Positions 12,519 through 55,789 of a stretch of 64,000 nt of DNA are shown in pieces (the first letter of the stretch is position 1; every line of letters starts with the position of its first letter). The DNA lies in contig CAJBLF010000015.1 of the NCBI GenBank assembly GCA_903953935.1, forward strand, positions 1,039 to 65,038, written 5' to 3'. This stretch comes from an uncultured bacterium (lineage in GTDB: Bacteria > Patescibacteriota > Gracilibacteria > Absconditabacterales > Absconditicoccaceae). The translations under genes were made by a program, and so were the position numbers. The notes below the pieces were generated by a model. That model worked only from the letters and a program-made list of their open reading frames with translations. It had not been told where the DNA came from and searched no databases.

Positions 12519-15074
12519 ATGAAGTATACCTCACCACTCTTGAAAAAATTTATCTCTATCAACGATACACCAGAAAATATCGCGAAGAATCTCATATTGA
12601 AAACCTGTGAAATAGAAGAAGTTCATCATAGAACTATCGCTGAGACAATCGTCATATGATATGTAAAATCTTGTGAACAACATCCTGATGCAGAAAAATT
12701 AAAAGTCTGTATGGTCGATTGCGGAAAGCAATGAGAATACCAGATCATCTGTGGTGGATCAAATGTCGCTGCGGGATTGTATGTCCCTGTCGCATTACCA
12801 GGAACGGTATTTGAAAAAGCTGGGATCACTATCGAGCCGAGAAAGATGAGAGGTATAGTTTCCAATGGTATGATCTGTAGTAAAGAAGAACTATGAATTC
12901 TTGAAGATTTGGAAAAACATTCCATCTGGTCACTGACCGAAGATTTGGAAGACATTTCTGACGCCGATGTGTGAACCGCATTGAGCGCAAAATTTCCTCG
13001 ACTTGAAAGTCGAGTGATGGAAGTCGACAATAAATCATTAACCAATAGACCTGATTTGACTGGGCATTTTGGTGCAGCAACGGAACTTAATGCAATATAT
13101 AGCGTAGTCGAAGGTTGAAAGTCAAAAACCGAAGGTCAGAAAATTAGTTTCAATAAAATCAAAGAATATTATGAACAATGCACACCACAACATATCATGC
13201 AAATATTGGAAAATAGTACAAAACCCGAAAGAAAGGTTATCGGAGAAAGTGATGGTTTGAATTCATATCTTCTCTTACATTTGAAAAATATAGAAGTTCA
13301 ACAAACATCATTTTTTACAAGATTACAGATGTTGGATCTATGATCTAACCCAATTAATAACTGGGTAGACTTTTCTAATTTATTTATGAATATCAGCGGA
13401 CAACCGATTCATTTCTTTGATGCAGAAAAAGTAGATGGAGATATTATCGTAAGAAACGCCAAAGACGGAGAGAAATTTACTGATCTGTTTGAAACTCAAC
13501 ATATATTGAAAGCAGCTGATGTCGTGATAGCTGATAAAAAGAAGATACTTGCACTTGCGGGAGTTGTCTGAGGACTTGAAAGTTGAATTACTGAAAGCAC
13601 AAAAAATATTTTGGTAGAAATCGCAAATTTCGATCCAGTAGCAGTCAGAAAGACATGAACAAGATTGAGCCTCAGAACTGATGCAGAATTGAGATTTGAA
13701 AAAAATATCAATCCACGATACACTTTATTTTGTCTGATTCTTTTCTTGGATGAATTAAATTATTATAAAAAAGACCTTGGAAATTTCGAGATCGGATGAT
13801 TATCTTATTTTATTAACGACCAACTCAAAACTCAAAATTCAAAGCAGATAGATATAGATATAAAAGTCATGGAACAATTCATTCTTGGACAAAAAGCAAA
13901 AGGATTTGATAAAACAACAGAAGAAATTTTGAAGGGATTATGATTTACATGAGTAGGTGGTTTAAAATTAGAAATTGAAAATTGAAAATTACATGTAGTT
14001 TGTCCTTTACGAAGAGGTCCCGACGATCTCAATATCCCAGAAGATATCTATGAAGAAGTAGCAAGAATCTATGGATATGATCAGATAGAAAATCTTCCTT
14101 TATTGGGAGATACTAGCTATGTCCCCTACACTGACTATGTCGCGATCCAAAGAAAACTAGAAGATGTTCTTGTAAGAACTATTGGTTGTAATCAAACAGA
14201 AACGTATCCACGAATTAGTGAAAAAACACTGAAAGAGCTTGGAAGAAACAAAGACCACATGTATATGTTACAAAATCCTGTAAATCCTGAAGCACCCTAT
14301 ATGAGAGATGATATGGTTTATGGTCTACTCGCACACACCGCGAAAAATAGCAAATTCTTTGATACATGCAAAATATTTGATATTGGAAAAATATGGAGAA
14401 AGGATGGTGCAGTAAAAAAAGATTCACCATTCGCTTCAGATTTCGTCAATGAACAGACAGAACTCTGAGTAATGCTCTATCAAAAAAACATAGACCAATG
14501 GAACAAAGACCCTATCTTGGAAGCTAAAAAAATCGTACAAGTGATTGCCAAAGAATTGGAACTCGGAAAAATTACGTTTGAAAAACCTGATGTTTCCCGA
14601 TTTCGGCTCCACCCAAAAAAACAAGCACTCATCAAAATTGGTGATCTTGTTATAGGATTTGTCGGTTCGTTACATCCATTAATTTTACAAAGCAATAAAA
14701 TCGGAGAAATCAGTGGTGTGGGATATCTCTCATTAAATATCACTACTATTATAGAGCATACTAAGAAAACTAGTGAACACATATATACCTATGAATCCTT
14801 ACAAGATCAAATCATCCGGAGAGATTTATGTTTCGTTGTAGAGAGTACTAATAGTTTTGATGCTATAATCACAGCAGTAAAACATGTTGCCGAAATCAAA
14901 GAAGTAGAAGTCTTTGATGTGTATGCAGGAAAAAATTTGGGTGAAGACAAAAAATCAGTTTCCATTAAGATAAAAATGGTCGGTGACTGAACGATGACTA
15001 CAGAACAAATCAATGACGTAATGAACAAAGCCATCAAAGCCGCAGAAGGTGCTGGTGGAACTTTAAGAGCATAA
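12519..15074 (+). CDS. pheT: Phenylalanine--tRNA ligase beta subunit
   Basis: tRNA-binding domain ([35 protein letters not shown]), B5 region ([14 protein letters not shown]), C-terminal domain. All fragments share the frame of ATG 12519. TAA at 15072. Confidence 0.9.
13962..13989 (+). repeat. Heptamer array (TTAAAAT TAGAAAT TGAAAAT TGAAAAT) inside pheT
   Basis: In frame it encodes [11 protein letters not shown]. The TGA at 13983 is in frame. Confidence 0.85.
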
Positions 15075-15090
15075 AAACATCATAGAGAAA

Positions 15091-15121
15091 ACTGAGATAT
15101 ATTTGTTGTCTCAGTTTTTTT
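15091..15121 (+). terminator. Rho-independent terminator after pheT
   Basis: ACTGAGA-loop-TCTCAGT followed by a T7 run. Confidence 0.7.
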
Positions 15122-15183
15122 ATTTAATTGACTTTTTATATTAAATCAATATGGTATTTTACATAATCATAAACAAAAACCAT

Positions 15184-15525
15184 ATGCCAGCAATTATGCT
15201 CTTAGGTGTTCCTAAGGAACAACGAACCATCAAATTTACTACCGCACTCCAACAAAGAGTGTGTGGTATGGACGTCCTTCATCTCACAGAAAATGATGTT
15301 TCTCCCTTTTTTATGCCCGCAGAGGGTCCTGTGGGAGAAATCATGATTTTAATTGCGTTCTTTTTTGATCTGCCCGAACGCACTCCAGAAGTCCGTCAAC
15401 TCCTTGTAGAAAGATTGCGCGATTGTACAAAAAAATTCTGTCCTGATGCTACACTGATTGAATGTGGTTATCTACCCTTTGATCAGACACTTGGATTTGC
15501 AAGATTTGCTAAACCCATAGAATAA
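15184..15525 (+). CDS. Hypothetical protein (GC-richer, no TGA)
   Basis: Intact ORF. ATG 15184 (MPAIMLLG..) is preferred over ATG 15151, which lies in AT-rich sequence. TAA stop. Confidence 0.45.
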   Translation: MPAIMLLGVPKEQRTIKFTTALQQRVCGMDVLHLTENDVSPFFMPAEGPVGEIMILIAFFFDLPERTPEVRQLLVERLRDCTKKFCPDATLIECGYLPFDQTLGFARFAKPIE

Positions 15526-15550
15526 TACCTTGCCTTACTCGCCTACTCTA

Positions 15551-15576
15551 CTGCCGGATACTCCGGCAGTTTTTTT
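15551..15576 (+). terminator. Rho-independent terminator
   Basis: CTGCCGGA-TAC-TCCGGCAG followed by a T7 run. Confidence 0.8.
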
Positions 15577-15580
15577 GATT

Positions 15581-15608
15581 AAAAAAAAATCCCTCTTTCG
15601 AGGGATTT
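15581..15608 (-). terminator. Rho-independent terminator of the convergent minus-strand gene
   Basis: AAATCCCTC-TTTC-GAGGGATTT, with a T9 run on the minus strand. Confidence 0.75.
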
Positions 15609-15616
15609 CTATCTTT

Positions 15617-16180
15617 TTACTTGGGCTTCGAACCATCAGGATCTTCTTCATATCATGTAATAATTTCTTCTACATCACTATCAGTATAATCACTAGTATT
15701 CTTTTCGGGTACAAATTTACTTGTCGGGGGCATATCGGTTCATTGATTTATGAATGCTTTCAATGCAGGCAATTCTGCCAATAAGTCATTGTTCGAGACA
15801 TTCTTCAATTCATAAAGCACATCACCCTCGTCGGAATTGAGACGTATATTAAGATTGCCAGCAGGCGTTACTGTGACTATCATTTGTCATTCTCCGAGAA
15901 CAGTTTTTCACTGTATAGGAGTCAATGGTCGTCAGGTCAATTGCACAACGATATCTTTTCTAGCAATATGATAGACACGAAATCCTTCTTTTTTAAGAAA
16001 ATTATAGTCCGTTCAGAATGCTTCTTTCAGAATATCTGCCGTTTTATTGGCTTTATCTTTAGCTTCTTTCGCCAATAAAGCTTTTGCAAGAGCCGCTCTC
16101 TGTGGCGCAGTATTTCCTCTTTGAAAATTGGCAGACTCCCTTCTCATTTCATGCTCTTCTTTGCTATAACGTTTTTCCAT
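15617..16180 (-). CDS. Hypothetical protein
   Basis: ATG 16180 to TAA 15617 in one frame with several TGA (..KEAFgTDYNF.., ..VLGEgQMIV..). The plus-strand track ORFs here are antisense artefacts. Confidence 0.5.
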
Positions 16181-16363
16181 GATACTCAGTATGATTATGT
16201 AAAATGTATTCTACTATTTTTAGTGTATATATTATAATTATTTAAACATCTTTGTCAATCATATCTTATCTAAATTATCTCTTGTATTTCATCAGGAATA
16301 CCATATACTCTTTATTGGAGATAGAAATCTACTCCAAATTTTATTCATTACCAATATTATTCA

Positions 16364-17136: not shown

Positions 17137-17139
17137 AAT

Positions 17140-20051: not shown

Positions 20052-22754
20052 ATGGCATTTACTCCAGCAATTATCCAATATCTTGATATCAAGAAAGAAC
20101 ATGAAGATTGTATCTTATTTTTTCGTATGGGAGATTTTTATGAGACTTTTTTTGAAGATGCAAAAACCTGTAGTAAAGTCTTGGATATCGTTCTAACGAG
20201 CAAGAATAAAAATTCTGAGAATTCCGTGCCTATGGCAGGTATTCCCTATCATAGTGCAGACAAATACATAACAAAACTTATCAATCATGGGTATAAAGTC
20301 GCTATTGCCGAACAAACTAGTGAACCTATTCCCGGAAAAATTGTAGAAAGAGAGGTCGTAAATATCATAACCCCAGGAACCTATATCCAAGAGACCAAGA
20401 AGGAATTTACATATACGATGGCGCTAACGTTTCTCCCCCATACTACGTGACAAAACTACCACATCGCTTGGGGTGATTTTAGTATCGGTGAGTATTGGAC
20501 TAAGAGCTTCGCTGATATCGCTGAGATGCAAAAATTCATCCTCACTATCAAACCCGTAGAGCTTATTTTTGATGTTGATTTTCCAGAAAAAGAAATGGTC
20601 ACTCTACCCGTCCAACACTATTTAAAATGTCTTATTTCCGTATGGGACTTACCCCCTGATCCAGAAAAATTTCTTGCATGAACGACGGGAGTACAACATA
20701 GCGCAAGTTATGGAAAGGCCATTGAAGAGTGAAGACTAGGTACGATCGCACTCCTCCTCTATTATTTGAAACACACCCAAAAACATGCACTGACCAATAT
20801 CACGAAAATCTCCTTTCATAGTCAGGATACCTATCTTATTTTGGATGAAGTCACGATAAAGAATTTGGAAATACTGTCGTCTACCTATGAGAGCAATGAA
20901 AAATATAGTTTATTGAATATTATAGATACTACCCAAACAGCTGGTGGTGCAAGACTTCTTCGTTATGTTATTACTAATCCTATCAAAGACAAACAACAAC
21001 TTGAACGAAGACTCACTACCATAGAAAAATACATGAACGATGAAACAATGGAACGATTGATTGATGGAAACATATATAGAGAGCATATTAGCAAACGCAT
21101 TCATCAGATGTTGAGTCATGTTCGTGATATTCCAAAAATTATAAGCATACTCTTATACAAGAAACTATTGCCAAATACTTTTATCAAGCTCAGAGCAACC
21201 TTGAGAATTTTTTTCGAAAATAAATTTTTGCTTGATGAATTAAGCTACTTGTGACTCAATGAAACTATCCAGTGACATGTACAACACATATACAACCATC
21301 TCGAACAACTTTTGAAAAACGATGAAGAATATAAAGATGATATAGATTTCATCCGTGATGGGTATCAAGAAAAAATAGATGAACTCAGAAAGATAGCATA
21401 TCACAGCGATGAGCTTCTCATGCAGTATCAACAAGAATTGGCAAGAGTCTGATGAATACCAAACGTAAAAGTAAAATACGTATTGAATCAGTGATATTTT
21501 CTTGAGGTAACGAATAAAGACATTGAGACTTTTGAAACAAAGATCTCAAATTCAGAATTGAGAATGCAGAATGCAGAATGAAAATTTGAAATAGTTCGTA
21601 GAAATACGCTGAAATGAGGTCAGAGATATTCTTCTCCGTACCTGGAAAATCTAGAAGTACATATATTGCAAGCAAAAGACGATTTACGCAGTTTGGAGTT
21701 TACATTACTCCAGCAAGCACAAGAAAAAATAGCATGATGAGTAAAAGAGTTGAATGAGTTTGCTGAACGAATAGCTCGGTTGGATCTATTTGTTTCTCAG
21801 GCACTATTAGCAAAAGAAAAATCTTTTGTAAAACCCGAATTTATTTCATGAGACAGTTTAACTATTATCGAATGAAGACATCCCGTAATCGAAAAATACC
21901 TTCCCCTTGATCAACAATTTATACCAAATGACCTTATACTAAATGGAGAATTGAATATTGACGTATCTTCGAATGAGGGAAATTGAAAATTAGAAATTGA
22001 AAAATCTGATTTTCTACATATCATTACATGACCAAATATGTGAGGTAAATCAACCTATCTGAGACAGAATGCACTTATTGTTTTGATGGCACATTGTGGA
22101 TTATTTGTACCTGCAAAAGTATGCAAAATAGGAATAGTAGATGCGATTTTTGCGCGTATCGGTAGTGGTGATATCATCGCAAAAAATCAATCTACGTTTA
22201 TGACAGAAATGATTGAAGTAGCAAACATATTAAATAATGCGAGTAAAAAATCATTCATCATTTTCGATGAATTATGACGTTGAACAGCAACGTATGATGG
22301 TCTTGCATTAACCAAAGCAATACTAGAATATCTCGTCACGAATATCGAGGCAAAAACATTGATAGCGACACATTATCATGAATTAATTCAGTTGGAAGAG
22401 ACTCTGCCTGGAGTAAAAAACTTTTCCGTCAGTGTCTATGAAACAGAAAAAGAAGTTGTCTTTATGAAAAAGATCGTCAGATGATGAGCGAGCAAGAGTT
22501 ATGGTCTCGACGTAGCAAAACTCGCATGAATACCAGCGACTATAGTAGAAAGAGCAAAATATAATCTCGAACATCTTGAACAAAACACAAAAAACACAGG
22601 ACAAGAAAACACTCCTATACCTTTGACCATTGATCTTCCACCTTCAAAAAATTATGAGAAAGTACATACCATACTCCAGAGCTATGATTTAAATAGCATC
22701 ACTCCTCTGCAAGCATTACAGATTTTAGACAAAATCAAAGACGAATTGCTGTAA
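20052..22754 (+). CDS. mutS: DNA mismatch repair protein MutS
   Basis: [17 protein letters not shown]-loop [15 protein letters not shown], DELgRgTATYDG, THYHEL. About 900 codons in one frame. TAA at 22752. Confidence 0.9.
21551..21592 (+). repeat. Heptamer array (TTCAGAA TTGAGAA TGCAGAA TGCAGAA TGAAAAT TTGAAAT) inside mutS
   Basis: In frame it encodes [15 protein letters not shown]. Confidence 0.8.
21977..22004 (+). repeat. Heptamer array (GGGAAAT TGAAAAT TAGAAAT TGAAAAA) inside mutS, just before the P-loop
   Basis: In frame it encodes EGNgKLEIEKS. Confidence 0.8.
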
Positions 22755-22777: not shown

Positions 22778-23563
22778 ATGAAAAAGGGAGAGATATATAT
22801 AGATCTAAACATCCAAGATCCCAACTGCACCATGCTATGTCCAGGATATATATATTTGGAAGATAAAGATGGATTTCGCACACGCGATAAAAAAGAGCGA
22901 GATCCTGACAATCTTCTTAAACTTGAACATATGATATCTACCCGTATGCAAAAACGCTATCAAGAAGAACTTTTGGACACACTCAATAAAAACACACCGA
23001 TATTATACATTGATTGTTCACAAAAATGAGAAGATGATATCATGCTATTTATTTTTAAAGAATATATCAAACAATCACAAGCACACAACAAAAACAATAT
23101 CGTGAGTAATGCTATTTGAAGACATACTATTGTAACAGAAAGCAAAGAACAATGGGACAAACATATTAAAGAAAATAATTTAACTCTTGATGGAATATTA
23201 CACTATTATAGTGAATCACTCAAAACATTATTACAAAAAAATACTGATGAAGAACGAAGAAATAGACTTTTGAATTTTGAAAGTGATATTACCTTCAATG
23301 GACTAGGTCAACTCATGGAAGATGAATGACATACCCACATAACACTCTATCTTGATAGAGTACAATCACTCAGTATAGAGGAACAACAGCGCATCAATAT
23401 GCTTCTTTTTACGAGATGAAACATCCCCCAAAACAAACGAATCAGACTCAAGATAAACGATGGCCAATGATCATGGAAAACATGGAGAACTATGTCTGGA
23501 CATAGAACCGAAGCAACTCATGATTATTCTGAAATAACTATACGTGAAAATGAATTGGAATAA
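22778..23563 (+). CDS. Hypothetical protein
   Basis: ATG 22778, one frame through five TGA to TAA 23561. This stop abuts the stop of the convergent gene. Confidence 0.5.
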
Positions 23564-24250
23564 TTATTTTTCAAGAATTTTCCATTCACCTGCTTTCAAA
23601 TCTCCTAAACTATATTTTCCTTCACGTACTCTTTCGATATCCATCACACGGTATCCGATAGTCTTAAACATTCTACGGATATGTCTTTTTTTGCCTTCAT
23701 TAAGCGTTATAGTATAATGATACTTTTTTTTGTTCTTAGTAATCTTTATTGCTCTAAGCATTTCATCCTCGTCTTTGACTCAGGAGAGTGCTCTCTGGAT
23801 ATCTTTGGATTCCAATTCCATATCAAGTTCTACTATATATTCTTTTTCTATACCATGTTTTGGATGTTCGTATTCGTTGACCAATGCAGGATCATCAGTC
23901 AGAAGAAGTAATCAATGAGAATTCTTGTCCAGTCTTCAGATATAATAATAATTTGTATATTCTGGAGGAAGTATTTCATAAATTGTTTTGTTGTGTGGAT
24001 CAGATTTGGAAGCAACATAACCAAGAGGTTTATTTAGCAAAATAAGTGTAGAGGATGTTTGTTTTTCTTCGATAATCTCATCTATCTTAAAATTTGGTGC
24101 TTTGATAGAAAGCTTATCACCAGTTATGACTTCTTGCGTATATGAGGTGATTTTTTTTCCATTTATAGAAACATATTCTTTGTTTACCATTGCAACAAAG
24201 TTTCTTCTAGATAGTTGATGACGTGTTTGTATATAAGTAAGTAAGCGCAT
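23564..24250 (-). CDS. rRNA pseudouridine synthase, RsuA/RluB family
   Basis: N-terminal S4-like domain. Catalytic motif gRLDKNSHgLLLLTDD. C-terminal GKKRHIRRMF. Confidence 0.8.
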
Positions 24251-27959: not shown

Positions 27960-27966
27960 AAATTTA

Positions 27967-28001
27967 TTGAGAATTGAGGATTGAGAGTTAAGGATTAAAT
28001 A
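27967..28001. repeat. Heptamer array TTGAGAA TTGAGGA TTGAGAG TTAAGGA TTAAATA
   Basis: Begins 8 nt after the stop at 27959. Confidence 0.8.
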
Positions 28002-34620: not shown

Positions 34621-35682
34621 ATGATACTAGGTTTAGCACCCATGGACTGATTTACCGATTGTGCTTTTCGCCAAATAACGAAAGAAATTTTTGATGTATA
34701 TGGAGAAAAAGAGAAATATACCTTATGATTATGGACTGAATTTATGAACGCTGATGGCTATATTATCAATCCGACATGAGTAATTAAGCACTTATTAACT
34801 GACACAGACCAGTCTCCTGTAATCGCACAAATCTTTTGAGCAAATGAGGGAATGATAATGAAATGTTTCGATGATATTCAGAGTAAATATTTTCATCATT
34901 GAAAATTGAAAATTGAAAATTGAAAATTCAGCTTTGCGGGTATCGAATTGAATATGGGTTGTCCTGCAAGAAACGTCATGAATACCTGATGATGAAGTGC
35001 ATTGTTGAAAGAAAGAAAACAGACATTAGCTATCATAAAAAAACTTTCATGAATTATGAAGATACCATTGAGTATCAAGACAAGAACCGGTAGAGATGAA
35101 CACGATCTCAAAGAACAAATGAATTTTTTGATCGAAATAAGTACCTATGTCAGCATGATCACTATCCACGGAAGAACTGTAAAACAGTGATATTCTGCAG
35201 ATAGTAACTGGGATTTTATCTACAAACTAAAACATAAAGCAGATAAAAAATGTAAGATACTCTGAAATGGTGGAATAAAAAACTATGAAGATATAGCATC
35301 ATTGGCAAAAAATCTAGATGGAGTTATGATTGGTCAAGCAGCTATTGGGAACCCACGAATCTTTACGCCACACACTCCAAGTAGAGAAGAAATAAAAGAA
35401 ACCATTCTGAAACATCTCGACTATATGATTAGCTATGAAAACTATTTTCAAGACCAAAAAGCGAGCTATCAAGATATGTTGTCGATGCCAGAACATTTAC
35501 CTATGAATATCAGAAATCCACAAGCTATTACGCTTGCAGAATTTAGAAAACATTTGTTCCAATATGTAAAATGAATTCCATGATCCAAAGAATTTAAGCA
35601 GAAAGTAAGCACGATAAGTGAATATAATCCGCTCGTACAAGAGATTCAGAAATTTTTTGAAAATGGTGACCAAAATGAATAA
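34621..35682 (+). CDS. tRNA-dihydrouridine synthase (Dus family)
   Basis: LAPMDgFTD, IELNMGCPARNV, NTgggSALL (three consecutive TGA at 34987-34995), TIHGRT, MIGQAAIGNP. Confidence 0.85.
34899..34926 (+). repeat. Perfect 4x TTGAAAA heptamer array inside the dus gene
   Basis: In frame it encodes HHgKLKIENgKF, just before the NMGCP active-site region. Confidence 0.9.
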
Positions 35683-37853: not shown

Positions 37854-37895
37854 ACCTAAACTAACAACTAACAACTTAGAGTGAACAACTAAAAA
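37854..37895. repeat. Heptamer array ACCTAAA CTAACAA CTAACAA CTTAGAG TGAACAA CTAAAAA in the priA-like leader
   Basis: Read directly. Confidence 0.75.
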
Positions 37896-40448: not shown

Positions 40449-42497
40449 ATGGAAGTCATCCAAAACGTAGTGTATGATACCGACTATAGCGCATATGTCG
40501 CTGACGGCGGATATCCACTCTTTCAAGCTTCTGCTACAACAGAAAAGCTATGATTTTTCGATAAAATATTATCCAACATATTTCCTAATCTTTATGCAAA
40601 AAAATGATGAACAACAAGTACAGGTAACGCAGGCAACAAAGCAAAAGATGTCTTACCTGAAAATGTCGCCATTAAAGATAAAACATTGAGGGATCAGGTA
40701 AAATACCTCCTAGAACTTCCCGATAACGAATATAATGACAAACTACTTACGAGCAAACTCAGACAATACATCTCCGAAACAGAAAAAGAATATGCATCTG
40801 TTATTAATGATTACAAGACTCATATAGCCCCTTCCTACTGGGAATTTAAATCCACACATTATAATGTGTCTGGAATCTTCTGAAAAACGTATTACGCACA
40901 AAGCTATCCTTCGTATATCGACGCACTTTGGACAAGAGATATTTTTGGTTTACATGCAAAACGAGATATGAGCCGATTCATTTTCCCTGAAGATGACGCA
41001 GCTATTCAGTCGATGTTAAAAAATAGAGCAACTCAACTGAAAGCAGAAGTAAAAGATGCCATGCAAAAAGGAATCACCCTCGATATGGAAATAGAACAGC
41101 AATATAGAGACGTAGAGATGATTAGAGAAAAACTTACCACACGCGAGGAAAGATATTTTGAAAATTCTTTCTACATCAATGTTTACGATGATGACGAAGA
41201 AAAACTCAAAGAAACGGGAAAAAAGATTGAACAAAAAATATCAGGATATGGAATAAGAATCAAAAGTGCAATCCAAAGAATGGATGAATGATTTGTTTCA
41301 TGATTACCACTCTGTACTGATGAACTTGCTATCAGCAGGAGCTCAGTCACTTCATCACTTGCTGGAGGATTTCCATTTATTTCCAACGATATGGTTAGTG
41401 ACACAGGAATTCTTTATGGCGTCAACTTACATACTGGATGATTAGTAATTTTTGATAGATACAATCAAAAACTACCAAACATGAATGGTGTTATACTTGC
41501 TACATCATGAGCTGGAAAATCCTTTACGGTAAAACTTGAGGTTTTGAGATATCTCATCAACGGTATCGATGTTATCATCATTGATCCAGAAAACGAATAT
41601 AAGGCACTCTGTCAGAAAGTAGGCGGTACCTATGTAAACATCGCAACAAATTCACAACAATATCTCAATCCTTTTGATATTCCGCCGAAAATAGAAGATG
41701 TAGAATATGGAAAATGAGATCTTTTGAGAAGTCAGATTATGAGTTTGATATGAATGATTCAGATTCTTATCTGAGGATGTACGCCAGAAGAAGAAGCATT
41801 GTTGGATAAGGCGCTACAAAATACGTATTCATTGAAATGATTTTCCCTAGATGCCGATAATTATGAAGGCAAACAACCACCAATCATGGGAGATCTTATG
41901 AATGTACTCGAAGGCATGGAAGGATGAGATAGACTAGCATTAAGATTAAGTAAATATGTAACCTGAACCTTTGGAAAAGTATTCAACAACTACACCAATA
42001 TCGACATCAACAATAGACTTACCGTAATAAGTATTAGAGATTTGGAAGATGCACTAAAAACTCCTGCCATGTTCAATGTACTCAACTGGATCTGGACTAA
42101 AGTAAGATCCCACAAGAAAAAGAGAATGCTCGCTTGCGATGAAGCATGGATTATGTTCCAAAATGAGACATCAGCAGAATTTCTTTTTGGACTCACTAAA
42201 AGAGCAAGAAAGTATGGATTATGAATCACCGTTATCTCGCAAGATATCGAAGATTTCGTAAAAAGCAAATACGGTAAACCAATCATATCCAACTGTGCTC
42301 TGCAAATATTATTAAAACAATCTACGACTTCGATCAGAGTATTAAATGAACTTTTGTGACTTTCTGATGCTGAGCAGAAAAGACTGGTCTCGGCAGGCAT
42401 ATGAGAATGATTGATTTTTGCTGGTAATCAGCATGTGGGAGTAAAAATACTAGCTTCCCCAGAAGAGAAAGCATTTATCACGACTGACGTAATATAA
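40449..42497 (+). CDS. virB4: VirB4/TraC-like type IV secretion ATPase
   Basis: Walker A GVILATSgAGKSFTVK, IIIDPENEY, Walker B MLACDEAW, GLgITVISQD. About 682 codons in one frame from ATG 40449 to TAA 42495. Confidence 0.75.
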
Positions 42498-42526
42498 CAA
42501 AACAACTACCAACGAATGAATTGTAC

Positions 42527-42558
42527 TTTACAGACTATAGCAATTTACAATAGTTCAT
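42527..42558 (+). promoter_or_regulatory. Conserved intergenic core motif, copy B (TTTACAGACTATAGCAATTTACAATAGTTCAT)
   Basis: 28/32 identical to copy C (55412-55443). Lies about 62 nt upstream of ATG 42613 and is flanked by short-period repeats. Confidence 0.45.
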
Positions 42559-42612
42559 CAACAAACCAAGTCCTAAATTATTCATTTTTACTTATTACTT
42601 ATTCATTCATTT

Positions 42613-43641
42613 ATGATGGAAGAAATGAAAGCAGTTGATACCAACACCAAAACTCAGCTTTCGCTTGCAGCAGCGTTGTTTTTTTCTCCATTGGTACAAA
42701 ACATACTCAACAAAAGCACATGGGATCTCACCGATAAAGATAAAGACTTCGTTCGTGGATACATCAAATTCTGATATATAACCCTCTTGTTTTGACTTAT
42801 TACCATTGCAACTTGAATTCTAAATTATGTATTTACTCTAAATATTCTAAGCGTCATTTACACGGTCAGTATATTTATTTTAATTTTCTTGTTGGTTATA
42901 AGTATAGTCAGTATTCTTTCTGATATTAGCCTCGTCAAATGAGGTGACTATCAGATTAAAACATATACTGTCGAAGGCAACAAAAAAGATATTATATTCA
43001 AATATCTCCCTCTCTACAACATCTATCTCCGATATAACATACATAGCTTTAATAAACCCAATCGATGGATTAAAGAGTCTCTCTTACTCTGGACTATTTT
43101 TTTCTTAGTAAGTATTTTGGGCAATGTTTTTCTCAGCAGCACTATGCTTATTATCATAATATTTAGAGTTGCAGCATTGATGTCTGATATCGATTTTCTC
43201 AATATGAATATCAAACAACATCTCAACGCTTTGTTTTTCAAAAATCCTGAAGAAATCATCTGATATATTACTGGGTCTGTTAGTTACCTTATAAAATCAA
43301 TCACCCATACGATATTTACCATGCAACCATATTCCCTAACAACAGAGATTACCAAGGAAAAGGAAGCATATAGCCATATCATTATTATCAGAGGCAATAC
43401 TTTTCTCATCATAGAATATATTCTCTGAATACTTTTGGCGAGTGGATTGATATATTTTATACACCCAAATTTTAGCATTCGAACGTATTATGCTAGCATA
43501 TGATTATTCATATCAAGATATGTAATTATGGCAGCACAACTTCAACATCTTCCCCATCTTCCTATCGCAAGAGAACTCTTGTTGCTTGTATATACTATCA
43601 TACCATACCTTAAAAGAAAATCTTTTATAAAAAATCCATAA
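42613..43641 (+). CDS. Polytopic membrane protein, hypothetical
   Basis: 342 aa with at least 6 hydrophobic helices. One frame with several TGA. The next gene's ATG begins 5 nt after its stop. Confidence 0.55.
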
Positions 43642-43645
43642 TAAG

Positions 43646-46306
43646 ATGACGTACAGACACAGACTGACTACTGGCATAGCAAAAATCATTGGTTCATGCA
43701 TGATGATGTTTTTTGCGCTTGTAGCATTTGCTCATGGACAAAATTGTACACTTCTCCCATGATGGAATCCTTCTGTTCTTATTGATGGACAATCCAAAAC
43801 CGGATATCAGGTACCTGAAGCAACATTTACTCAAAGTTGTACTGGATCAGTAGGCGTCATTACCTGTATAAGTGGTAGTATTGCTAACGGTAATGTCTTT
43901 AAATATCAATCATGCATTCCCCATACTCGAGCAAATTGTACCACACCTACGTGAGCTAATCATTTGGAATACAGAACATTATATAAGCTTGCTCAATCGA
44001 CATACACACAAACATGCCAGCAGTTAAGCCAAAATCTACAATGTCTCAATGGTATATTTACCTGATGAATAACGCCCAATCTCTTTACTCATGCGACATG
44101 CGTAGATCCCAACCGAACACAATGTATTGATGTTTGGACCAATAGTTACAAAGATCACGGTGAAATGCTTGTATGATATACCGCCAATCATCCATCTATA
44201 GGACAAATGTGTTCTACGATGCAAAAAACACTTACCTGCACCAATGGTACCTGGGCATGAAACGGAACCCAATGACAAGCTTGACTTGTTACCGGCTGTA
44301 CTAATCCACCAGTATTTTCTTGATGTCTAAATATCCGAACAAATACTACTCTTCCTCATTGATCGTCTTTGGGCGCATATCTCTATCCTAGTGGTATATG
44401 TAGCAACTTATATTATCCCCTTCTTTGTATCAATGGTTTGCGAAGCGGTGGAAATCAAATTTCATTATATTCATGATGCGCGAATACAAATACACAATCA
44501 TGTCCAAACATCATAACTAATTCTGGTACACTTCCTCATTTATCAGTAATCACCAAATATTCCCAAAAATTCGCTTTTGGAATGAATAATGATTATTGTA
44601 GTGATTTCGCTAAAATACTACAATGCACCAATGGCATCCGATCAGGTAATGTAGCAGGTCTCTTTACTTGATGCTTAAATATCGAATCATGAGCATGTTT
44701 AGATACTTCAACCAATATATATACACCAAATCTCCACTCTATAACAAAATATACTATTGCTCAAGCAACCTCTACCCAATCATGTGAAGAATCTCAAGTA
44801 CAATTTACCTGTGTAAACAGTGTACGATCTGGCGGTAATCCAAGTTCATATCCTTTCTCGTGATGTTGATGATGTAAACTTCCTTCAGCACGATGAGTCG
44901 CTGTCAGTGAATGACGACAAGGCTATTGATACTCCGTAACATGAGCGATATTTCCAAAAACATGTAATGATTATTCTACTTTACTTTCATGTACCAGTGG
45001 AATTTTGAATGGAAACCGACAAACCTACAAATATCCAAGTTCCCAATGTCAAAATAGTTGAGCGTTGGTTACTGGTATAGATCTCGCTATCGATTGATCA
45101 CCAGGAATTCCTGGACAGGAGAATATCAGTGGCGCTGTAATTGCCCAATGATCAAGTCCGCAAATGACTATTCTCATCCAAAATAAATGAACAGATCTCG
45201 TCAATCAACCTATCAATACTTCTGGGTTTCTCACCTGTAGACGAGCACAACAAAATCTTATCGTCTATACCTCTAAACCGATAACCAATTTTGTTGTTAA
45301 TCCTGGAACGAAAGTAGGAGTAAGTATCAGAATTAAATCACTCTTTACTCAAGCATTGGGTACAAAAACGCTAATATGCAAAATAGATACTAGCCTACTC
45401 TGAGGAAGTATTGTAGGCCCTGGTAATGATACACGATCAGGAACCTTTGAAATCGTACAAGCAGATAGATTTGATCTCGCTCTCAGTAAAAGTATTCAAA
45501 CAATAAGTCAAAATCTTGAGGCTGCTGAATGAGCCAAAGGTGTACAGTGAGTACAAAACTTTTTGTATAATAAAATCATGAATGTTCTTGTTCCTCTCAT
45601 AGTCATCATTGGAATTCTTTCTGCGATTCTCTGATTCTATAAGATTATGTTCTCCAGTGAAGATGCTGCTACTAAAGAATGAGTTAACTATATTATTTAT
45701 TGAGTGATAGGTATTATTGTAATTATGAGTGCTAAATTTATTGGACAAAATATTTTCGATTTACTCAATCCTCAAGGCGGTCAAATTCAATGATATACTA
45801 TAGCCAGTGGACTCTATGATAAGGTTATCTATCCCTTCATTAAATTTGCTATCTATCTTGTACTTGGTGCTATGTTTATCATCTTGATATCTCGTGTTAT
45901 CACCTTTCTCTTCGGTAGCGATACTGATGCACAGAAAAAGGCATGAACATTAATCTGATGGAATATAGTTTCTATGTTGATTATCATCTGAGCCAAACAA
46001 ATTGTTGAAGCTATCTATGGTAAACAAGATCAAGTAGTAAGAGATATAACTAATCTTGGGGATATCGGTTCATGAATTCTCGCCGATAGAAACATACCAA
46101 TTCTCTATCAAGTCATCAATTATGCACTTGGCATAGCATCACTAGTTATCCTGGTTATTATTATCATCCAGACCATTCAACTCCTCACGAAACCAGATGA
46201 TCCTGCGCAAATAAAAAGTATTAAGAATAGTCTGCTCTATATGCTTATAGGAATTCTTATTCTTGGAGCTGGTTATCTGATAGTCAACTTTGCTATTATC
46301 AACTAA
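43646..46306 (+). CDS. Secreted Cys-rich repeat protein with C-terminal multi-TM TrbC/VirB2-like region
   Basis: Signal peptide, then about seven repeats of roughly 55-60 aa built on ..C..NG..(S/T)G.. (CISGSIANGN, CLNGIFTgg, CTNGTWAgNG, CINGLRSGGN, CTNGIRSGNV, CVNSVRSGGN, CTSGILNGNR), then 4-5 TM helices. 886 codons. TAA at 46304. Confidence 0.55.
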
Positions 46307-48709: not shown

Positions 48710-48728
48710 CTATTAGAGAACAAAAGTA

Positions 48729-48763
48729 TGGAGAATTGAGAATTGAGAGTGGAGGGTGGAAAG
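48729..48763. repeat. Heptamer array TGGAGAA TTGAGAA TTGAGAG TGGAGGG TGGAAAG
   Basis: Begins 20 nt after the stop at 48709. Confidence 0.8.
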
Positions 48764-48812
48764 TATCCTTCAAGACAAAAATGTTAAAAACTTTATATTT
48801 GAATACCATCAT

Positions 48813-49513: not shown

Positions 49514-50596
49514 ATGATACATACGATGTTAGATAAATTGGCCAGTATAGAAAAAAAATACCTTGAGCTCAGAGAACAAATGATGAATCCTGAAATTATT
49601 TCTGATAACAAAAAATCTATCCAGCTCAGCAAAGATGTCTCTGGAATGCAGGAGATTTATGATCTCTATCAAGCATATAAGAAGGCACATCAGCAAAAAC
49701 AGGAAGCACAAGACATGATAGATACTGAACAGGATCCCGAAATGCTCGATATGGCAAAGGAACAACTCAAAGAATCTGAAACACTTATCGACGAATTGGA
49801 TGCAAAAATAAAGATTTCCCTCCTTCCCAAAGATCCGAATGACGATAAAAATATCTTTCTAGAAATTAGACCAGCTGCATGAGGAGATGAAGCGTGATTA
49901 TTCGCTACAGAACTTTTGAAAATGTATCTCTGATACGCAACAAAAAAATGATGGAAACCAGAAATTACCGAAGAACAACTCTCAGATATCGGTGGAATTA
50001 AATTCGTGATGGTAAAAATCAGTGGAAATAGCGTTTATTCTATTATGAAATTTGAAAGTGGAGTACATAGAGTACAAAGAATACCTTCAACAGAATCACA
50101 AGGAAGAGTTCATACTTCGACAGTTACTGTAGCTATCATGCCAGAAGCTGAAGATATAGACTTTGTTATTGATCCAAAAGACGTAGAAATGGATACCTAT
50201 GCTGCCTCTAGTAGTTGAGGTCAGAATGCCAATAAGAATCAAACATGAGTAAGATTACGCCATATACCAAGCGGATTAATTGTTAATATCTGAGACAGTA
50301 AATCACAATTACAAAACAAAGATAGAGCATGGTCAGTCCTCAAGGCAAGATTGTATCAAATAGAACTCGATAAAAAAACTGCTGAAACTAAATCACTCAG
50401 AGGAGATCAGATTGGTGGTGGTGATAGATCAGAAAAAATCAGAACATATAATTATCCTCAAGATAGAATAACCGATCATCGTATCCATCAATCATGGTCA
50501 AACTTACCGGTCTTTATGACATGAGAAATTGATGATATGATCAATGCGCTAGTACTCGAAAACCAGACAAGACTCTTGGAAGAAAGCATGAAATAA
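49514..50596 (+). CDS. prfA: Peptide chain release factor 1
   Basis: [17 protein letters not shown] (RF1-type PxT tripeptide) and SSgGQNANK (the first Gly of GGQ is TGA at 50216). Confidence 0.9.
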
Positions 50597-52428: not shown

Positions 52429-52433
52429 AACTG

Positions 52434-52518
52434 TGGAAATTGGAGAGTGGAGAGTGGAGAATTGAAAAATAAAAAAGGCACATTTTCATTCTCCCTCATC
52501 AATTCTCAATTCTCCACA
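52434..52518. terminator. Long imperfect hairpin formed by two inverted heptamer arrays between convergent genes
   Basis: TGGAAAT TGGAGAG TGGAGAG TGGAGAA TTGAAAA ... TTTTCAT TCTCCCT CATCAAT TCTCAAT TCTCCAC. Confidence 0.6.
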
Positions 52519-52523
52519 TTTTA

Positions 52524-53027
52524 TTATATCTTCCTCGCGTCGTACGCTCGATGAAGCACTGCTTGTCTTTGTCTTTTTCTACACTCCCAATCTAAGGGAT
52601 AACAATTATTTCTGATTGCCTTTACGTGTCTCACCATATTTTTTCGGCGTTTGATCTGACGTTCATCATCCGGTCCCCTCCTTCCCATATAATATCTACA
52701 ATATCGTTGAAACCGTCCTCTTGGATCTTCTTCATATATTCGTCATTTTTCTTGTCGGATTTTTAATGACTGCGAAGCATTTACTTTGAAAAAATTAAGT
52801 TTCGGATTTTTTTTGTCGGGAGAAAGTTTGGCGTTAGTAAATCGGTCAGTAGGAAATTCATCTCTACAATCTGTCATATATTTTCCTCAAAATATGCCCA
52901 TCTCGAGCATCTCTTGCGGGGTCAATTCCGGATGAAATATCGGAGAAAAATTCTGTCCCATGGGTTGAGTCAGATAATAGGTATAATTTTTTTGTAGAGT
53001 ATCGTTGACGATTATTTTTTTATTCAT
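52524..53027 (-). CDS. DUF4385-like protein
   Basis: LTPQEMLEMGIFgGKY and DPRGRFQRYCRYYMGRRGPDDERQIKR resemble the DUF4385 pattern as recalled from memory. Confidence 0.5.
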
Positions 53028-53063
53028 AACTAAAATATAGTACTTGAAGCTTTTTTTGCAAGC

Positions 53064-53091
53064 AAAAAAGCTCCGCTTTGCAGCAGAGCTC
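53064..53091 (-). terminator. Rho-independent terminator after fusA
   Basis: On the minus strand, AGCTCTGC-TGCAAA-GCGGAGCT followed by a T6 run. Confidence 0.7.
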
Positions 53092-53124
53092 TTTCATATG
53101 TTCGTCATTGGTAATTCGTAATTA

Positions 53125-55224
53125 TTATTCCGCGTCCATAGCTTTGATTTTTCCAGATCTTTCTTCGATAATTTTCTTTGCAACATTTTCTGGAACTTTC
53201 TCGTATGATGCGAAGCTCATAGATGATTGAGCTCTTCCTTGGGTATTTGATCTCAAATCTGTGGTATATCCAAACATCTCAGACAATGGAACTTTAGCTT
53301 TGATAACTGCTGCATTTCCTCTCTTGTCTTGTCCCTGGATCATTCCTCTTCTAGAAGACAAATCTCCCATTACATCTCCAACATAATCTTCTGGAGTCAC
53401 TACTTCTACATCCATAATAGGTTCCAAGATACATGGACCTGCTTTCATAAACGCGTCTTTGAATGCTCTATATGTTGCGATTTTAAACGCTATTTCTGAT
53501 GAATCCACATCATGATATGATCCATCGTATGCGATTACTCTTACATTGATGATAGGATATCCTGCCAATACTCCTTGAGCAACAGTTTCTTTTGCTCCTT
53601 TATCGATAGCTGGAATAAACTCTTTTGGAATCGTACCTCCTGTCACTTCATCTTTGAATTCATATTCTTTTTCCATATTTTTTTCTAATCTCAACAATAC
53701 ATGTCCAAATTGTCCTCTACCTCCTGTCTGTCTCTTGAAGATTCCTTCTCCCTTAGCATTTTGGGTAATTGTTTCTCTGTAAGCAACTTGTGGTTTACCT
53801 GTATTTACTTCTACTTTATGTTCTCTCTTGAGTCTATCTACAATAATTTCTAGATGCAACTCTCCCATACCTGCAATGATAGTTTGATTGCTTTCTGGGT
53901 CAGAAAAATATTTGAATGAAGGATCTTCGTATGCAAGTTTAGAAAGTGCTATACCCATTCTTTCTTGATCAGATTTAGTCTTTGGTTCGATAGCGATATC
54001 GATAACTGGTATAGGGAACGTCATCTTTTCTAGAATGATAGGATTTTTCATATCACAAAGTGTGTGTCCTGTTCTTGTGTCTTTGAGTCCAAGGAACGCA
54101 CAGATATGTCCTGCATGTATTTCTGAAATTTCTTCTCTCTTGTTTGCGTGCATAAGCAACAACCTTCCCACTCTTTCTTTTTGTCTTGTAAGTGGATTGA
54201 GCAATGTATCTCCTGTCTTAATGATACCTGAATATACTCTTACGAAGGTAAGTGTACCTACGAATGGATCAGTAGCGATTTTGAAAGCGATAGCTGAAAC
54301 TGGATCAGTATCGTTTGGTTGTCTCTCAAGTGTTTTAGTTTCATCATCTGGATCAAGTCCCTTCATTGTTCCTCTATCAAGTGGAGTTGGTAAGAAATCA
54401 ATTACCGCATCAAGCACTAATTGTACTCACTTGTTTCCAAGTGCAGAACCACATAAAATAGGATATAAATCACTCTTTATCGTTCCTGCTCTGATAGCTT
54501 TTTTGATAAGTTCAATGGATGGTTCTTCTCCTGCGAGAAATTTTTCTGCTAATTCATCATCAAACATAGATACCTTATCGATCATTTCTTCTCTATATTT
54601 CTTTGATTTTTCAAGCATATCAGCTGGAATTTCTTCTTCATGTACTTCAATACCTTTATCTCCTGAGAACGTATACATTTTCATAGTAAGCAAATCGATG
54701 ATTGCTTTGAATTCGTCAGCTTGTCCTACAGGAATCTGAAGAACGACTCCTTTGTCTGTAATTCTAGATTTGATAGAATCTACGGACATATAGAAATCAG
54801 CTCCAAGTTTATCCATCTTGTTTGCAAAGATGATTCTTGGCACACCATATTTATCAGCTTGTCTCCAAACTGTTTCTGTCTGTGGTTCAACTCCTTGTGA
54901 ACTATCGAGCAATGCTACTGCACCATCGAGAACTCTCAATGATCTTTCTACTTCAACAGTAAAATCCACGTGTCCTGGGGTATCAATAATATTGATTTGA
55001 CAATCATGCCAAAAACACGTTGTCGCAGCAGAGGTAATAGTAATTCCCCTTTCTTTTTCTTGTTCCATCCAGTCCATTTCTGCAGCACCATCATGTACTT
55101 CTCAGATTTTGTGTTTCTTTCCTGTATAAAACAACACTCTTTCAGTGGTAGTAGTCTTACCTGCATCAATGTGAGCCATGATTCCAATGTTTCTCACATG
55201 TAACAGGTCTTTTCGCTCGGCCAT
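53125..55224 (-). CDS. fusA: Elongation factor G
   Basis: AHIDAGKTT, [25 protein letters not shown], [12 protein letters not shown], [12 protein letters not shown]. 699 codons with only two TGA. Confidence 0.95.
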
Positions 55225-55228
55225 AATT

Positions 55229-55268
55229 ATAAACGATTAAACGATAAAATGATGAAATGATAAAACGA
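55229..55268. repeat. Tandem 8-mer array (ATAAACGA TTAAACGA TAAAATGA TGAAATGA TAAAACGA) abutting the fusA start
   Basis: Same family as 351-382. Confidence 0.8.
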
Positions 55269-55322
55269 TGTATATGCGTTTTACTGGATTTTTCTTGTAT
55301 AAAAAAAACTCCTATTGGACTC

Positions 55323-55350
55323 TATATAGGCAATCGCCGGTTTATTTCAA
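55323..55350 (-). promoter_or_regulatory. Sigma70-like promoter TTGAAA-16 nt-TATATA for fusA
   Basis: On the minus strand, TTGAAA is at 55350-55345 and TATATA at 55328-55323. Confidence 0.45.
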
Positions 55351-55360
55351 GAGAAACTAC

Positions 55361-55395
55361 TAAATTAACTAATAACTAATAGTTAACAACTAACA
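55361..55395. repeat. Heptamer array TAAATTA ACTAATA ACTAATA GTTAACA ACTAACA
   Basis: Read directly. Flanks core motif copy C on the left. Confidence 0.75.
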
Positions 55396-55411
55396 ATGAT
55401 GGAATTATTTA

Positions 55412-55443
55412 TTTACTGACTATCGCAATCTACAATAGTCCAT
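55412..55443 (+). promoter_or_regulatory. Conserved intergenic core motif, copy C (TTTACTGACTATCGCAATCTACAATAGTCCAT)
   Basis: 28/32 identical to copy B. Here it points into the 3' end of gatC, i.e. antisense. Confidence 0.4.
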
Positions 55444-55459
55444 ATTAAAGCAAATCTCT

Positions 55460-55494
55460 CACTGTTCACTGTTAGTTATTCACTGTTCACTGAT
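55460..55494. repeat. Heptamer array CACTGTT CACTGTT AGTTATT CACTGTT CACTGAT
   Basis: Read directly. Flanks core motif copy C on the right and ends 1 nt before the gatC stop. Confidence 0.8.
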
Positions 55495-55495
55495 T

Positions 55496-55789
55496 TTAAG
55501 ATAATACTGATTTTATAACTATGGAATTATTGACCAACTCATGTTTCACATTTTTCAAGATTTTTTTACCATCTGAACTTTCTTTATTTCCCGTAATAGT
55601 TCTAAGCGTAAACTTCTCTTCCGCAATTTTCAATTTTCAATTCTCAATTTTCAATTTTGGTTCTGGGAGCTGTCCAAGAAATCCTATAATATCGCTGAGT
55701 TGTGCTCAAAGTTTCTCTTCTTGCTGAGGAGAAAGTGCAATACAAGAAAGCTTCTGAAGACGTTTTATTTCTTGAGTAAAATCAACCAT
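55496..55789 (-). CDS. gatC: Asp/Glu-tRNA amidotransferase subunit C
   Basis: 97 aa: ..IKRLQKLSCIALSPQQEEKLgAQLSDIIGFLGQL..LRTITGN..ILKNVKHELVNNSIVIKSVLS. TAA at 55496. Confidence 0.7.
55625..55659 (-). repeat. Heptamer array (plus-strand reading AATTTTC AATTTTC AATTCTC AATTTTC AATTTTG) inside gatC
   Basis: In frame on the minus strand it encodes PKLKIENgKLKI. Confidence 0.85.

Follow-up and report, generated by a model that had tools for sequence, protein, structure and literature searches.

Heptanucleotide repeat arrays in spacers and conserved genes of an Absconditabacteria bacterium that reads UGA as glycine

We analysed a 64-kb stretch of DNA from an uncultured Absconditabacteria (SR1) bacterium (contig CAJBLF010000015.1, positions 1,039 to 65,038; hereafter the window), in which short tandem arrays with a period of 7 nt occupy spacers and also lie in frame inside conserved genes, among them pheT, mutS, dus and gatC (Table 1). 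These arrays are probably simple sequence repeats (SSRs) of heptanucleotide units that occur lineage-wide and are homogenised in place, with the copies in genes filtered by whether the unit can be translated in three frames and the reading of UGA as glycine acting as a permissive condition. An earlier note, made from the sequence alone, had described a TGA-containing heptamer family in this DNA as a mobile or slippage-prone repeat that colonises linker regions of essential proteins. Its account of the sequence was accurate: tandem period-7 sequence is present at all ten stretches that it listed (the weakest, at 4697–4746, is degenerate), and the peptides that it quoted for pheT, mutS (two), dus and gatC match the translation under genetic code 25 exactly. 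Its description of these four genes as essential probably holds for pheT and gatC, but not for mutS and dus. Six arrays in Table 1 were absent from that account, namely pheT sites A and C, the AACTAAC array, the GTTAGTT leader array, the TTAGTTA array in the fusA-gatC spacer and the CAGTGAA array after gatC. Most of the arrays in the window belong to the ATTGAAA/ATTGAGA/ATTAGAA family.

The excess is specific to a period of 7 nt. Arrays of at least three units that fit the degenerate pattern RTKVRRR numbered nine in the window, compared with 0.05–0.09 expected under Markov models of order 1–5; two-unit matches to the same pattern (15 versus 5.5–9.7 expected) exceeded expectation at most about twofold. 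A self-similarity scan for arrays of any unit (three units, at least 85% self-identity), which was used besides Tandem Repeats Finder (TRF), returned 12 period-7 arrays against 0.54 expected, while period 6 gave 2 (0.42 expected) and periods 8–15 gave 0 or 1. When codons were shuffled within genes, the coding sequence still stood out, with eight period-7 arrays versus 0.37 expected and a maximum of four in 200 shuffles. Among periods of at least 6 nt, the enrichment was confined to period 7 both in the window and in ten related loci. Base composition, the explanation that the earlier note had itself set against its proposal, does not account for these numbers (8–12 arrays observed versus 0.05–0.5 expected). 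An accident of an AT-rich, purine-skewed genome, or an artefact of assembly, has a practically negligible probability. The 34% GC content of the window and the use of the commonest codons in the units would favour chance, but the Markov and codon-shuffled nulls fall far short of the observed counts, and period 7 alone is enriched. As for assembly, the arrays are shorter than sequencing reads, the same sites carry arrays in independently assembled relatives, and the window's MutS, PheT and GatC proteins are recorded from several sources.

The organism uses genetic code 25, in which UGA encodes glycine, and is an SR1 bacterium, because TGA stands at invariant glycine positions, the only stop codons are TAA and TAG, and the homologs carry SR1 names. 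Considering the 62 gene calls, 53 end in TAA, nine in TAG and none in TGA, and reading TGA as sense triples the content of open reading frames (ORFs) from 12,354 to 36,329 aa (ORFs of at least 100 aa). With 425 in-frame occurrences, about 33% of the ~1,270 glycine codons in the window, TGA is the 13th commonest codon in the window's codon usage. It encodes invariant glycines of the P-loops GPTGSgKT and GPNMgGKST (g = TGA), of DELgRgT, of the gGQ motif of RF1 and of a CTP synthase motif. The RF1 gene itself lies at 49514–50596; it has the GGQ motif, and its counterpart on the syntenic contig shows PCRF and RF-1 domains. Homologs of MutS and Dus are labelled "candidate division SR1" or Absconditabacteria in their sources, and the existing records of the window's MutS, PheT and GatC lie on a 142-kb contig and have W for TGA. 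More generally, database translations of SR1 genes were mostly made with code 4, which places W at every TGA (e.g., GPNMWGKST). A tRNA scan found no tRNA genes in the 64 kb, and neither this nor an Rfam scan detected any annotated RNA overlapping the arrays.

Related SR1 loci were used to establish how widely the arrays occur. All ten related loci (L001–L010, with MutS 61–95% identical to that of the window) showed the period-7 excess, with 1.3–7 arrays per 10 kb versus about 0.1 expected and with many different units. The earlier note had proposed counting its motif genome-wide and splitting the count by coding and non-coding location; we made this split on 204 kb of non-redundant SR1 loci, a set that comprises loci and no whole genome. 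It yielded 56 arrays, of which 40 (71%) are coding and 16 non-coding, although the density is higher in non-coding sequence (6.4 versus 2.2 arrays per 10 kb). The consensus unit contains TAA or TAG in 6/16 non-coding but only 4/40 coding arrays. TGA-containing units are a minority among the coding arrays (13–14 of 40), and 27 of the 40 coding consensus units contain no standard stop codon at all. Dozens of unrelated units were found (such as AATTCAG, AGCTCAA, AGGGACA and TTCATCA), and with units so varied and so often free of stop codons, the proposed single family of TGA-containing heptamers has to be given up. Nor does recoding explain the presence of arrays. The RAAC1_SR1 locus (L011) has none in 22.6 kb and a human- or animal-type SR1 locus of ~22 kb (L012) has one weak array; because these two SR1 loci are nearly array-free and the ten related loci are rich, the period-7 arrays are a lineage trait and not a consequence of the changed code. 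One further SR1 locus (L013) has five arrays, mostly in spacer, two of which are long and lie just upstream of mutS.

The units seen in genes can be accounted for by their codon compatibility. We scored 2,344 heptamer units (rotations merged) by the product of the genome frequencies of their seven cyclic codons. ATTGAAA, which is translated as I-E-N-G-K-L-K, ranked 6th, with only homopolymer-like units and AAAAATG above it. Other units found in genes ranked 2nd (AAAAATG), 12th (AAAATTC), 24th (AAAATGG), 31st (AAGAATG) and 47th, and the median rank of the observed coding units was 282 of 2,344. Raw 7-mer abundance was also considered as the basis of unit choice and rejected, as ATTGAAA is only 72nd by this measure (window, both strands) and the codon-product ranking fits far better. 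ATTGAAA is translatable in all frames because TGA is a common glycine codon, and it is usable only since TGA is read as glycine; recoding widens the set of allowed units and does not create the arrays. The earlier note was right that, under the standard code, no frame could stay open through a pure array of at least three TGA-containing units. Its further claim, that the arrays are tolerated only because UGA is sense, holds for ATTGAAA but not for arrays generally, considering the 27 coding units without a standard stop.

The same constraint is visible in metagenome contigs. More than 120 of them, ranging from 24 to 68% GC, were found to carry (ATTGAAA)4, and the first 80 loci were examined. 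In standard-code contigs, 62 arrays lay outside ORFs and 17 within them, and all 17 were in the stop-free antisense frame (FQFSIFN), which is the sole reading available under the standard code. The sense frame (IENGKLK) was used within ORFs in two contigs, both recoded, where the array lies in a GTPase just before the P-loop (L050) and in a LigA-like ORF (L071). We also considered ATTGAAA as a special, widespread element and rejected this, since viral contigs contain other heptamers of like composition at least as often: (ATTGAAA)4 gave 12 hits there, compared with 20–36 for four-copy arrays of three AT-rich heptamers of the same composition, and a hexamer and an octamer array gave 3 and 7 hits.

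At individual sites, the position of an array is kept while its unit turns over. This is clearest at pheT site A, which shows no length variation in 7 orthologs and is 7-nt periodic in five of them, with a different unit in each lineage (AACTCAA in the window, AGCTCAA in L002, AGCGGCA/AGCGACA in L005, AGGGACA in L009 and ATTGAAA in L006). Four or five consecutive 7-mers are involved, and within each lineage the change is present in all copies. The position of pheT site C carries AGTCAAA/AGTCGAA arrays also in L002 and L009, and two different arrays in L005, where the protein is 17 aa longer, while pheT site B is 8–10 aa longer than in 4 of the 6 SR1 orthologs compared. MutS site 1 has the same length in the window, L001, L002 and L003, with AATTCAG and AATGCAG variants. 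Spacers behave likewise, the unit between the RNaseH and methyltransferase genes being ATTGAGA in the window, AAAACTA in L001 and TTCATCA (six copies) in L002. Because orthologous sites keep their arrays while the unit changes in all copies, this is concerted evolution in place and not repeated colonisation by one sequence.

Two sites behave differently. The dus array is identical over 29 nt in the window, L014, L015 and L016, while the dus genes are 72–82% identical at the nucleotide level and the sequences flanking the array show synonymous codon differences among the four. Its presence is patchy, as many orthologs lack the insert (including some with 76–79% protein identity), and other Dus orthologs have different inserts with a 7-aa period at the same site (NAEFRMQNAE, NPKSKIQNPK and NSELWTMNSE). 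MutS site 2 is the sole hyperdivergent block (73% mismatch and an 18-nt length difference) between the window and L003 and L010, strains that are ~94% identical to it at the nucleotide level. Here, the sequence is entirely different between 95%-identical MutS proteins (L003 3466–3582; P0001, P0014 and P0123), and the L003-type peptide recurs, with 38 of 39 residues matching, in another MutS whose overall identity is just 78%. This pattern suggests a cassette that was swapped by recombination or, alternatively, an old (balanced) polymorphism.

All coding arrays are read in frame without an in-frame stop, and their relation to the proteins varies from site to site. In dus, the array encodes an insertion of 13–15 aa relative to Thermotoga maritima Dus (1vhn), located ahead of the strand leading to the NxGCP motif. 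Compared with Neisseria MutS (5x9w), site 1 adds ~16 aa in domain IV and site 2 adds ~22 aa just before Walker A. In contrast, the LKLEIENGKL segment of pheT site B aligns with FETTLKGETL, the B5 beta-hairpin of Staphylococcus PheT (2rhq), so that it coincides with a hairpin already present there, and the net gain is only ~6 aa. PheT site A is likewise not an insertion, given its constant length among the 7 orthologs. GatC has a normal length of 97 aa, and as it aligns nearly end-to-end with the 94-aa GatC of Aquifex aeolicus, it contains no real insertion. The earlier note's expectation of lineage-specific insertions in loops was thus borne out for dus and both mutS sites but not for pheT site B or GatC. 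In the five gene arrays that it described, the purine-rich strand is the sense strand, and the opposite reading would be rich in Phe; from this we infer that selection at the protein level may act on the orientation of the arrays. The alternating pattern of the encoded peptides, followed by an N-G turn, suggests a beta-hairpin, a reading based on sequence alignments to 1vhn, 5x9w and 2rhq.

In spacers, the arrays are placed close to the signals for starting and ending expression. T-rich repeats with a period of 7–8 nt directly abut the starts of the genes for SHMT and a DUF456 protein, mutS, pheT, fusA and others, and six lineages have mutS leaders with a 7-nt periodicity (units AGCTTTA, TTCATTG, CCTTTCA and TAAGTCC). 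A Shine-Dalgarno-like motif (GGAG, GAGG or AGGA, at most 20 nt from the start codon) was found for 3 of the 62 genes, and translation initiation appears to be largely independent of this motif. Arrays after stop codons are purine-rich (27966, 48728 and 55459). The inverted pair at 52433–52518 folds at −33.8 kcal/mol (z = −4.7), with none of 200 shuffles as good, and the modelled hairpin is probably a bidirectional terminator. Placement and predicted folding together suggest that spacer arrays may take part in translation or termination.

Several further repeats of this kind were observed. Period-8 arrays of ATCGTTTN (sense) lie at 55231–55269, directly upstream of the start of fusA (EF-G) at 55224, and at 352–383, upstream of a minus-strand gene at the left edge of the window. 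A two-copy repeat of AATCTTTT at 12494–12510 precedes pheT. These period-8 leader repeats may be related to the heptamer leaders. In standard-code contigs that may belong to Bacteroidetes, AATTACG and ATTGAAA arrays lie just upstream of or within the starts of signal-peptide ORFs (L093 ~2900–3020; L080 ~8128–8155); as these contigs carry them, leader arrays are not confined to SR1. Metagenome contigs of 60–68% GC contain perfect (ATTGAAA)4/(TTTCAAT)4 inverted pairs around GC-rich spacers of 20–45 nt (L025 5567–5661; L058 2229–2309; L061 8672–8749 and 10759–10837; also L036, L046 and L079), and one 12-kb stretch has two such pairs. By their arrangement, these high-GC pairs resemble a bidirectional terminator or a small dispersed element.

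To explain the arrays, we favour lineage-wide heptanucleotide SSRs that are homogenised in place. Misaligned replication or repair in a 7-nt register would create the arrays and keep them homogeneous. Spacers would hold them most densely, with a T-rich sense strand before starts and a purine-rich one after stops, where inverted pairs could form terminator-like hairpins. Within genes, arrays would persist in structurally permissive loops and beta-hairpins, with only frame-preserving states surviving, and selection would admit units that have no in-frame TAA or TAG and that read as frequent hydrophilic codons in three frames. The best non-trivial unit under code 25 and this codon usage is ATTGAAA, whose I-E-N-G-K-L-K peptide would form an alternating strand followed by an N-G turn. 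Some observations weigh against this explanation. The identity of the dus array over 29 nt in four lineages goes beyond neutral homogenisation; we propose that three-frame coupling plus codon optimality may be responsible. The gain or loss of one unit shifts the frame and should be harmful, so that homogenising arrays in essential genes would seem to require lethal intermediates. There is no direct sign of slippage, and no length polymorphism in near-identical strains, of which there were only two to three. The choice of 7 nt is unexplained. Finally, one unit family occurs at many loci, and distant Dus and MutS orthologs have insert peptides in common, which could reflect transfer or recombination of arrays.

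Strain comparisons bear on the alternatives that involve change or movement of the arrays. Array peptides are unchanged between near-identical strains in PheT (P0125, P0126), GatC (P0128, P0129) and MutS site 1 (P0001, P0123), while array lengths do differ among more distant orthologs. When metagenome contigs were searched for length variants of the gatC array with a gapped pattern, none matched, and frameshifted genes were not encountered at any array. The pheT gene of L002 appears split beside its array and was considered as a slippage frameshift, but a run of Ns at a scaffold gap accounts for this. Slippage is therefore something that we infer here rather than observe. It is very improbable that the arrays are phase-variation switches, in which the gain or loss of one unit would toggle genes such as mutS and dus and, for mutS, create mutator subpopulations. 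A 7-nt unit does shift the frame, mutS has two arrays, and 7-bp repeats act in this way elsewhere (e.g., H. influenzae hmw1A; PMC8262952). However, the arrays are short (3–5 units) and mostly imperfect, unlike the long, perfect, strain-variable and frame-toggling tracts of contingency loci; the peptides do not change between near-identical strains; the length of the Dus array is conserved over 65–83% protein identity; pheT and gatC cannot be switched off; and no gene was seen to be frameshifted at an array.

The mobile repeat of the earlier note, a TGAAAAT-type array that spreads by transposition, conversion or templated insertion and colonises spacers and loops, is quite unlikely. The prevalence of one family in the window would fit it, as would the occurrence of ATTGAAA-type arrays in different genes of other SR1 genomes (pheT site A in L006, the GTPase in L050 and LigA in L071), the patchy presence of the dus array and its nucleotide identity across diverged lineages, and the MutS site 2 alleles that are common to 78%-identical proteins and differ between 95%-identical ones. 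Against this, orthologous sites keep their arrays while all copies change unit, units are unrelated by the dozen, codon compatibility alone predicts the dominance of ATTGAAA, and (ATTGAAA)4 is no commoner than the control heptamers in viral contigs. Inspection of the flanking sequence by eye, with no systematic search, revealed neither terminal inverted repeats nor target-site duplications nor flanks in common between arrays. A different proposal is that the arrays are functional elements, with proteins or the expression machinery recognising 7-nt periodic DNA or RNA and with coding copies selected as nucleic acid; possible roles are Shine-Dalgarno-independent leaders, terminator arms, pause sites and nucleoid-protein sites. 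The rarity of Shine-Dalgarno-like motifs together with T-rich arrays at many starts, the strong fold between convergent genes, the inverted (ATTGAAA)4 pairs in high-GC contigs, the conservation of the dus array at the nucleotide level and the parallel with TAACTGA repeats upstream of Beggiatoaceae start codons (PMC4679880) all speak for such roles. But the coding unit can be entirely different at orthologous positions, which argues against sequence-specific recognition, and both the array-poor SR1 loci and close Dus orthologs manage without arrays. As a general account we hold this to be unlikely, though still worth entertaining, an estimate that applies mainly to the spacer arrays, and a role for those is compatible with homogenised SSRs and not exclusive of them. 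It is highly doubtful that the 7-nt periodicity as a whole is kept by selection or by a dedicated process (functional signals such as binding or pausing sites in essential genes and beside start and stop codons, register switches such as a mutS toggle, or a heptamer-generating process specific to the lineage) with which code 25 co-evolved, letting the arrays run through coding sequence.

Homogenised heptanucleotide SSRs have precedents. As cited in PMC4679880 and PMC4692102, heptanucleotide SSRs are the most abundant class of long SSRs in many bacteria, for which polymerase slippage was proposed (Mrazek, 2007), and long SSRs in coding regions have unit lengths that are multiples of 3, other lengths being rare there (Mrazek, Guo & Shah, 2007). 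The arrays described here resemble that class as it is cited there in that 7-nt units are over-represented relative to other lengths, enriched outside genes and scattered across lineages, and they share its general features of head-to-tail copies beyond chance, a specific period and several unit families. They differ from the survey, as cited, in that 40/56 (71%) are in frame in genes, including those of conserved housekeeping enzymes, in a code-25 organism. Cyanobacterial short tandemly repeated repetitive (STRR) sequences are a second parallel (Mazel et al, 1990, as cited in PMC4692102). In both cases, one lineage has several heptamer families, and each family forms tandem arrays at many loci, but the phylum (STRR are from heterocystous cyanobacteria) and the units are different, so that the resemblance is of kind only and the arrays are not members of the STRR family. 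STRR units reportedly include CCCCAGT and others and are said to invade the P12 helix of RNase P RNA. We know of no link between STRR and recoding, nor of a systematic description of in-frame STRR arrays in protein genes.

The TAACTGA repeats of marine Beggiatoaceae, some cyanobacteria and Bacteroidetes occur in 2–6 copies, mostly a few nucleotides upstream of starts, in regions without a Shine-Dalgarno motif (MacGregor, 2015; PMC4679880). Their forward orientation is excluded from ORFs, as it has TAA and TGA stops in all frames, and reverse copies lie at the edges of proteins (PMC4679880). The window has related leader arrays (TTAGTTA and GTTAGTT), but many units are used here instead of a dominant one, and while coding copies of TAACTGA are mostly at protein edges or in hypothetical proteins, the arrays here are in internal loops of PheT, MutS, Dus and GatC, with TGA read as Gly. 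The GGGAATC repeats of Xanthomonas and GGGGA(T/C)T repeats of Nostoc are intergenic, with conserved position and variable length and sequence (Rehm et al, 2015; PMC4692102). They share with our arrays the conserved positions between relatives and the inverted pairs between convergent genes, but they are G-rich and may form quadruplexes, whereas the arrays here are A/T- and purine-rich, not G4-forming and in many cases coding. The hmw1A tracts of H. influenzae (PMC8262952) likewise have a 7-nt unit, and expression would change if a single unit slipped. They are long and perfect, differ between strains and are located at surface-protein loci, while ours are short, do not vary between strains and lie in housekeeping genes. 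A literature search on heptamer or tandem repeats in Absconditabacteria (SR1) or Gracilibacteria returned no relevant description. Three points appear to be new: the extent to which conserved housekeeping proteins carry heptamer arrays in frame, the concerted evolution of these arrays at fixed positions and the way in which code 25 admits the codon-optimal unit.

Table 1. Period-7 arrays in the 64-kb window (g, glycine encoded by TGA).
Feature	Coordinates	Strand	Array and context
Intergenic, degenerate	4697–4746	−	GTGGAGA GTTGAGA ATTGCGG ATTTTAA..., between two minus-strand genes
5'-leader array	5987–6016	−	GTTAGTT x4 (sense), directly upstream of DUF456 gene start at 5979
5'-leader array	8661–8699	−	AATTTCT/AATTTTC (sense), directly upstream of SHMT start at 8657
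pheT site C	13106–13140 (approximate)	+	Degenerate, in frame: AGTCGAA GGTTGAA AGTCAAA AACCGAA GGTCAGA
pheT site A	13821–13844	+	In-frame unit AACTCAA, peptide QLKTQNSK
pheT site B	13962–13989	+	In-frame ATTAGAA/ATTGAAA, peptide LKLEIENgKL, B5 domain
mutS site 1	21549–21592	+	In-frame AATTCAG/AATGCAG, domain IV
mutS site 2	21940–22010	+	Hypervariable block with array at 21977–22004, NgKLEIEKS, just before Walker A
Intergenic	27966–27996	+	ATTGAGA/ATTGAGG, 7 nt past stop of RNase_H_2-like gene
dus	34898–34928	+	Perfect (ATTGAAA)x4.4 in frame, peptide HHgKLKIENgKF
AACTAAC x3	37858–37880	+	Near 5' end of PriA_C-like ORF, peptide KLTTNNLE
Intergenic	48728–48764	+	GGAGAAT/TGAGAAT/GTGGAGG, 19 nt past a stop codon
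Inverted array pair	52433–52518		Long hairpin between convergent genes
fusA-gatC spacer	55366–55393	−	TTAGTTA
After gatC	55459–55492	−	CAGTGAA x5, immediately past gatC stop codon
gatC	55624–55659	−	In-frame ATTGAAA/ATTGAGA x5, peptide PKLKIENgKLKI

Two gene starts call for comment. The dus gene most likely starts at 34621 and not at the start of the long ORF, and the AACTAAC array may be located at or before the true start codon of the PriA_C-like ORF. Repeats with longer units were also present in the window. At 55845–56033, an 82-nt unit is repeated 2.3 times, overlapping the region upstream of gatC, and at 63498–63980, four to five units of 69–72 nt lie inside an ORF of more than 1,090 aa that runs past the right end of the window and is probably a repetitive surface protein. 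The secreted or membrane protein encoded at 56208–57290 (minus strand) has a His-rich C-terminal tail (HHAHHTHAHEAHHPHHIHHPHDPHHQHH) that is encoded by short imperfect repeats.

Among the other genes, a type IV secretion (T4SS)- or conjugation-like cluster at 40449–46306 contains a TraG/VirB4-like ATPase (P-loop_TraG, DUF87), a 342-aa membrane protein and an 886-aa Cys-rich protein, orthologs of which match T4SS_pilin only weakly. The cluster is syntenic in L014 and L015. In the ~94% identical strain L010, a purine-biosynthesis insertion of ~6 kb (7285–13265; FGAR amidotransferase, GARS and formyltransferase) lies between the 261-aa gene after mutS and a pseudouridine synthase gene, and the window has no such insertion at the corresponding position (23563–23564).

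For those who use these genomes, two consequences are practical. Records that have W in place of glycine, owing to translation with code 4, distort alignments, and structure predictions or conservation analyses based on them would be misled; hypervariable loops encoded by repeats in marker proteins of candidate phyla can mislead alignments and mimic recombination. The T-rich leaders and the array hairpins parallel a question that has been raised, and is open, for Beggiatoaceae and Bacteroidetes. For the biology of the lineage, the arrays constitute a natural data set on microsatellite evolution under a three-frame constraint, in which position (and at some sites length) is kept while the unit turns over. 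They also expose a side effect of codon reassignment: with TGA as a common glycine codon, ATTGAAA becomes translatable in three frames, and IENGKLK inserts appear in conserved enzymes.

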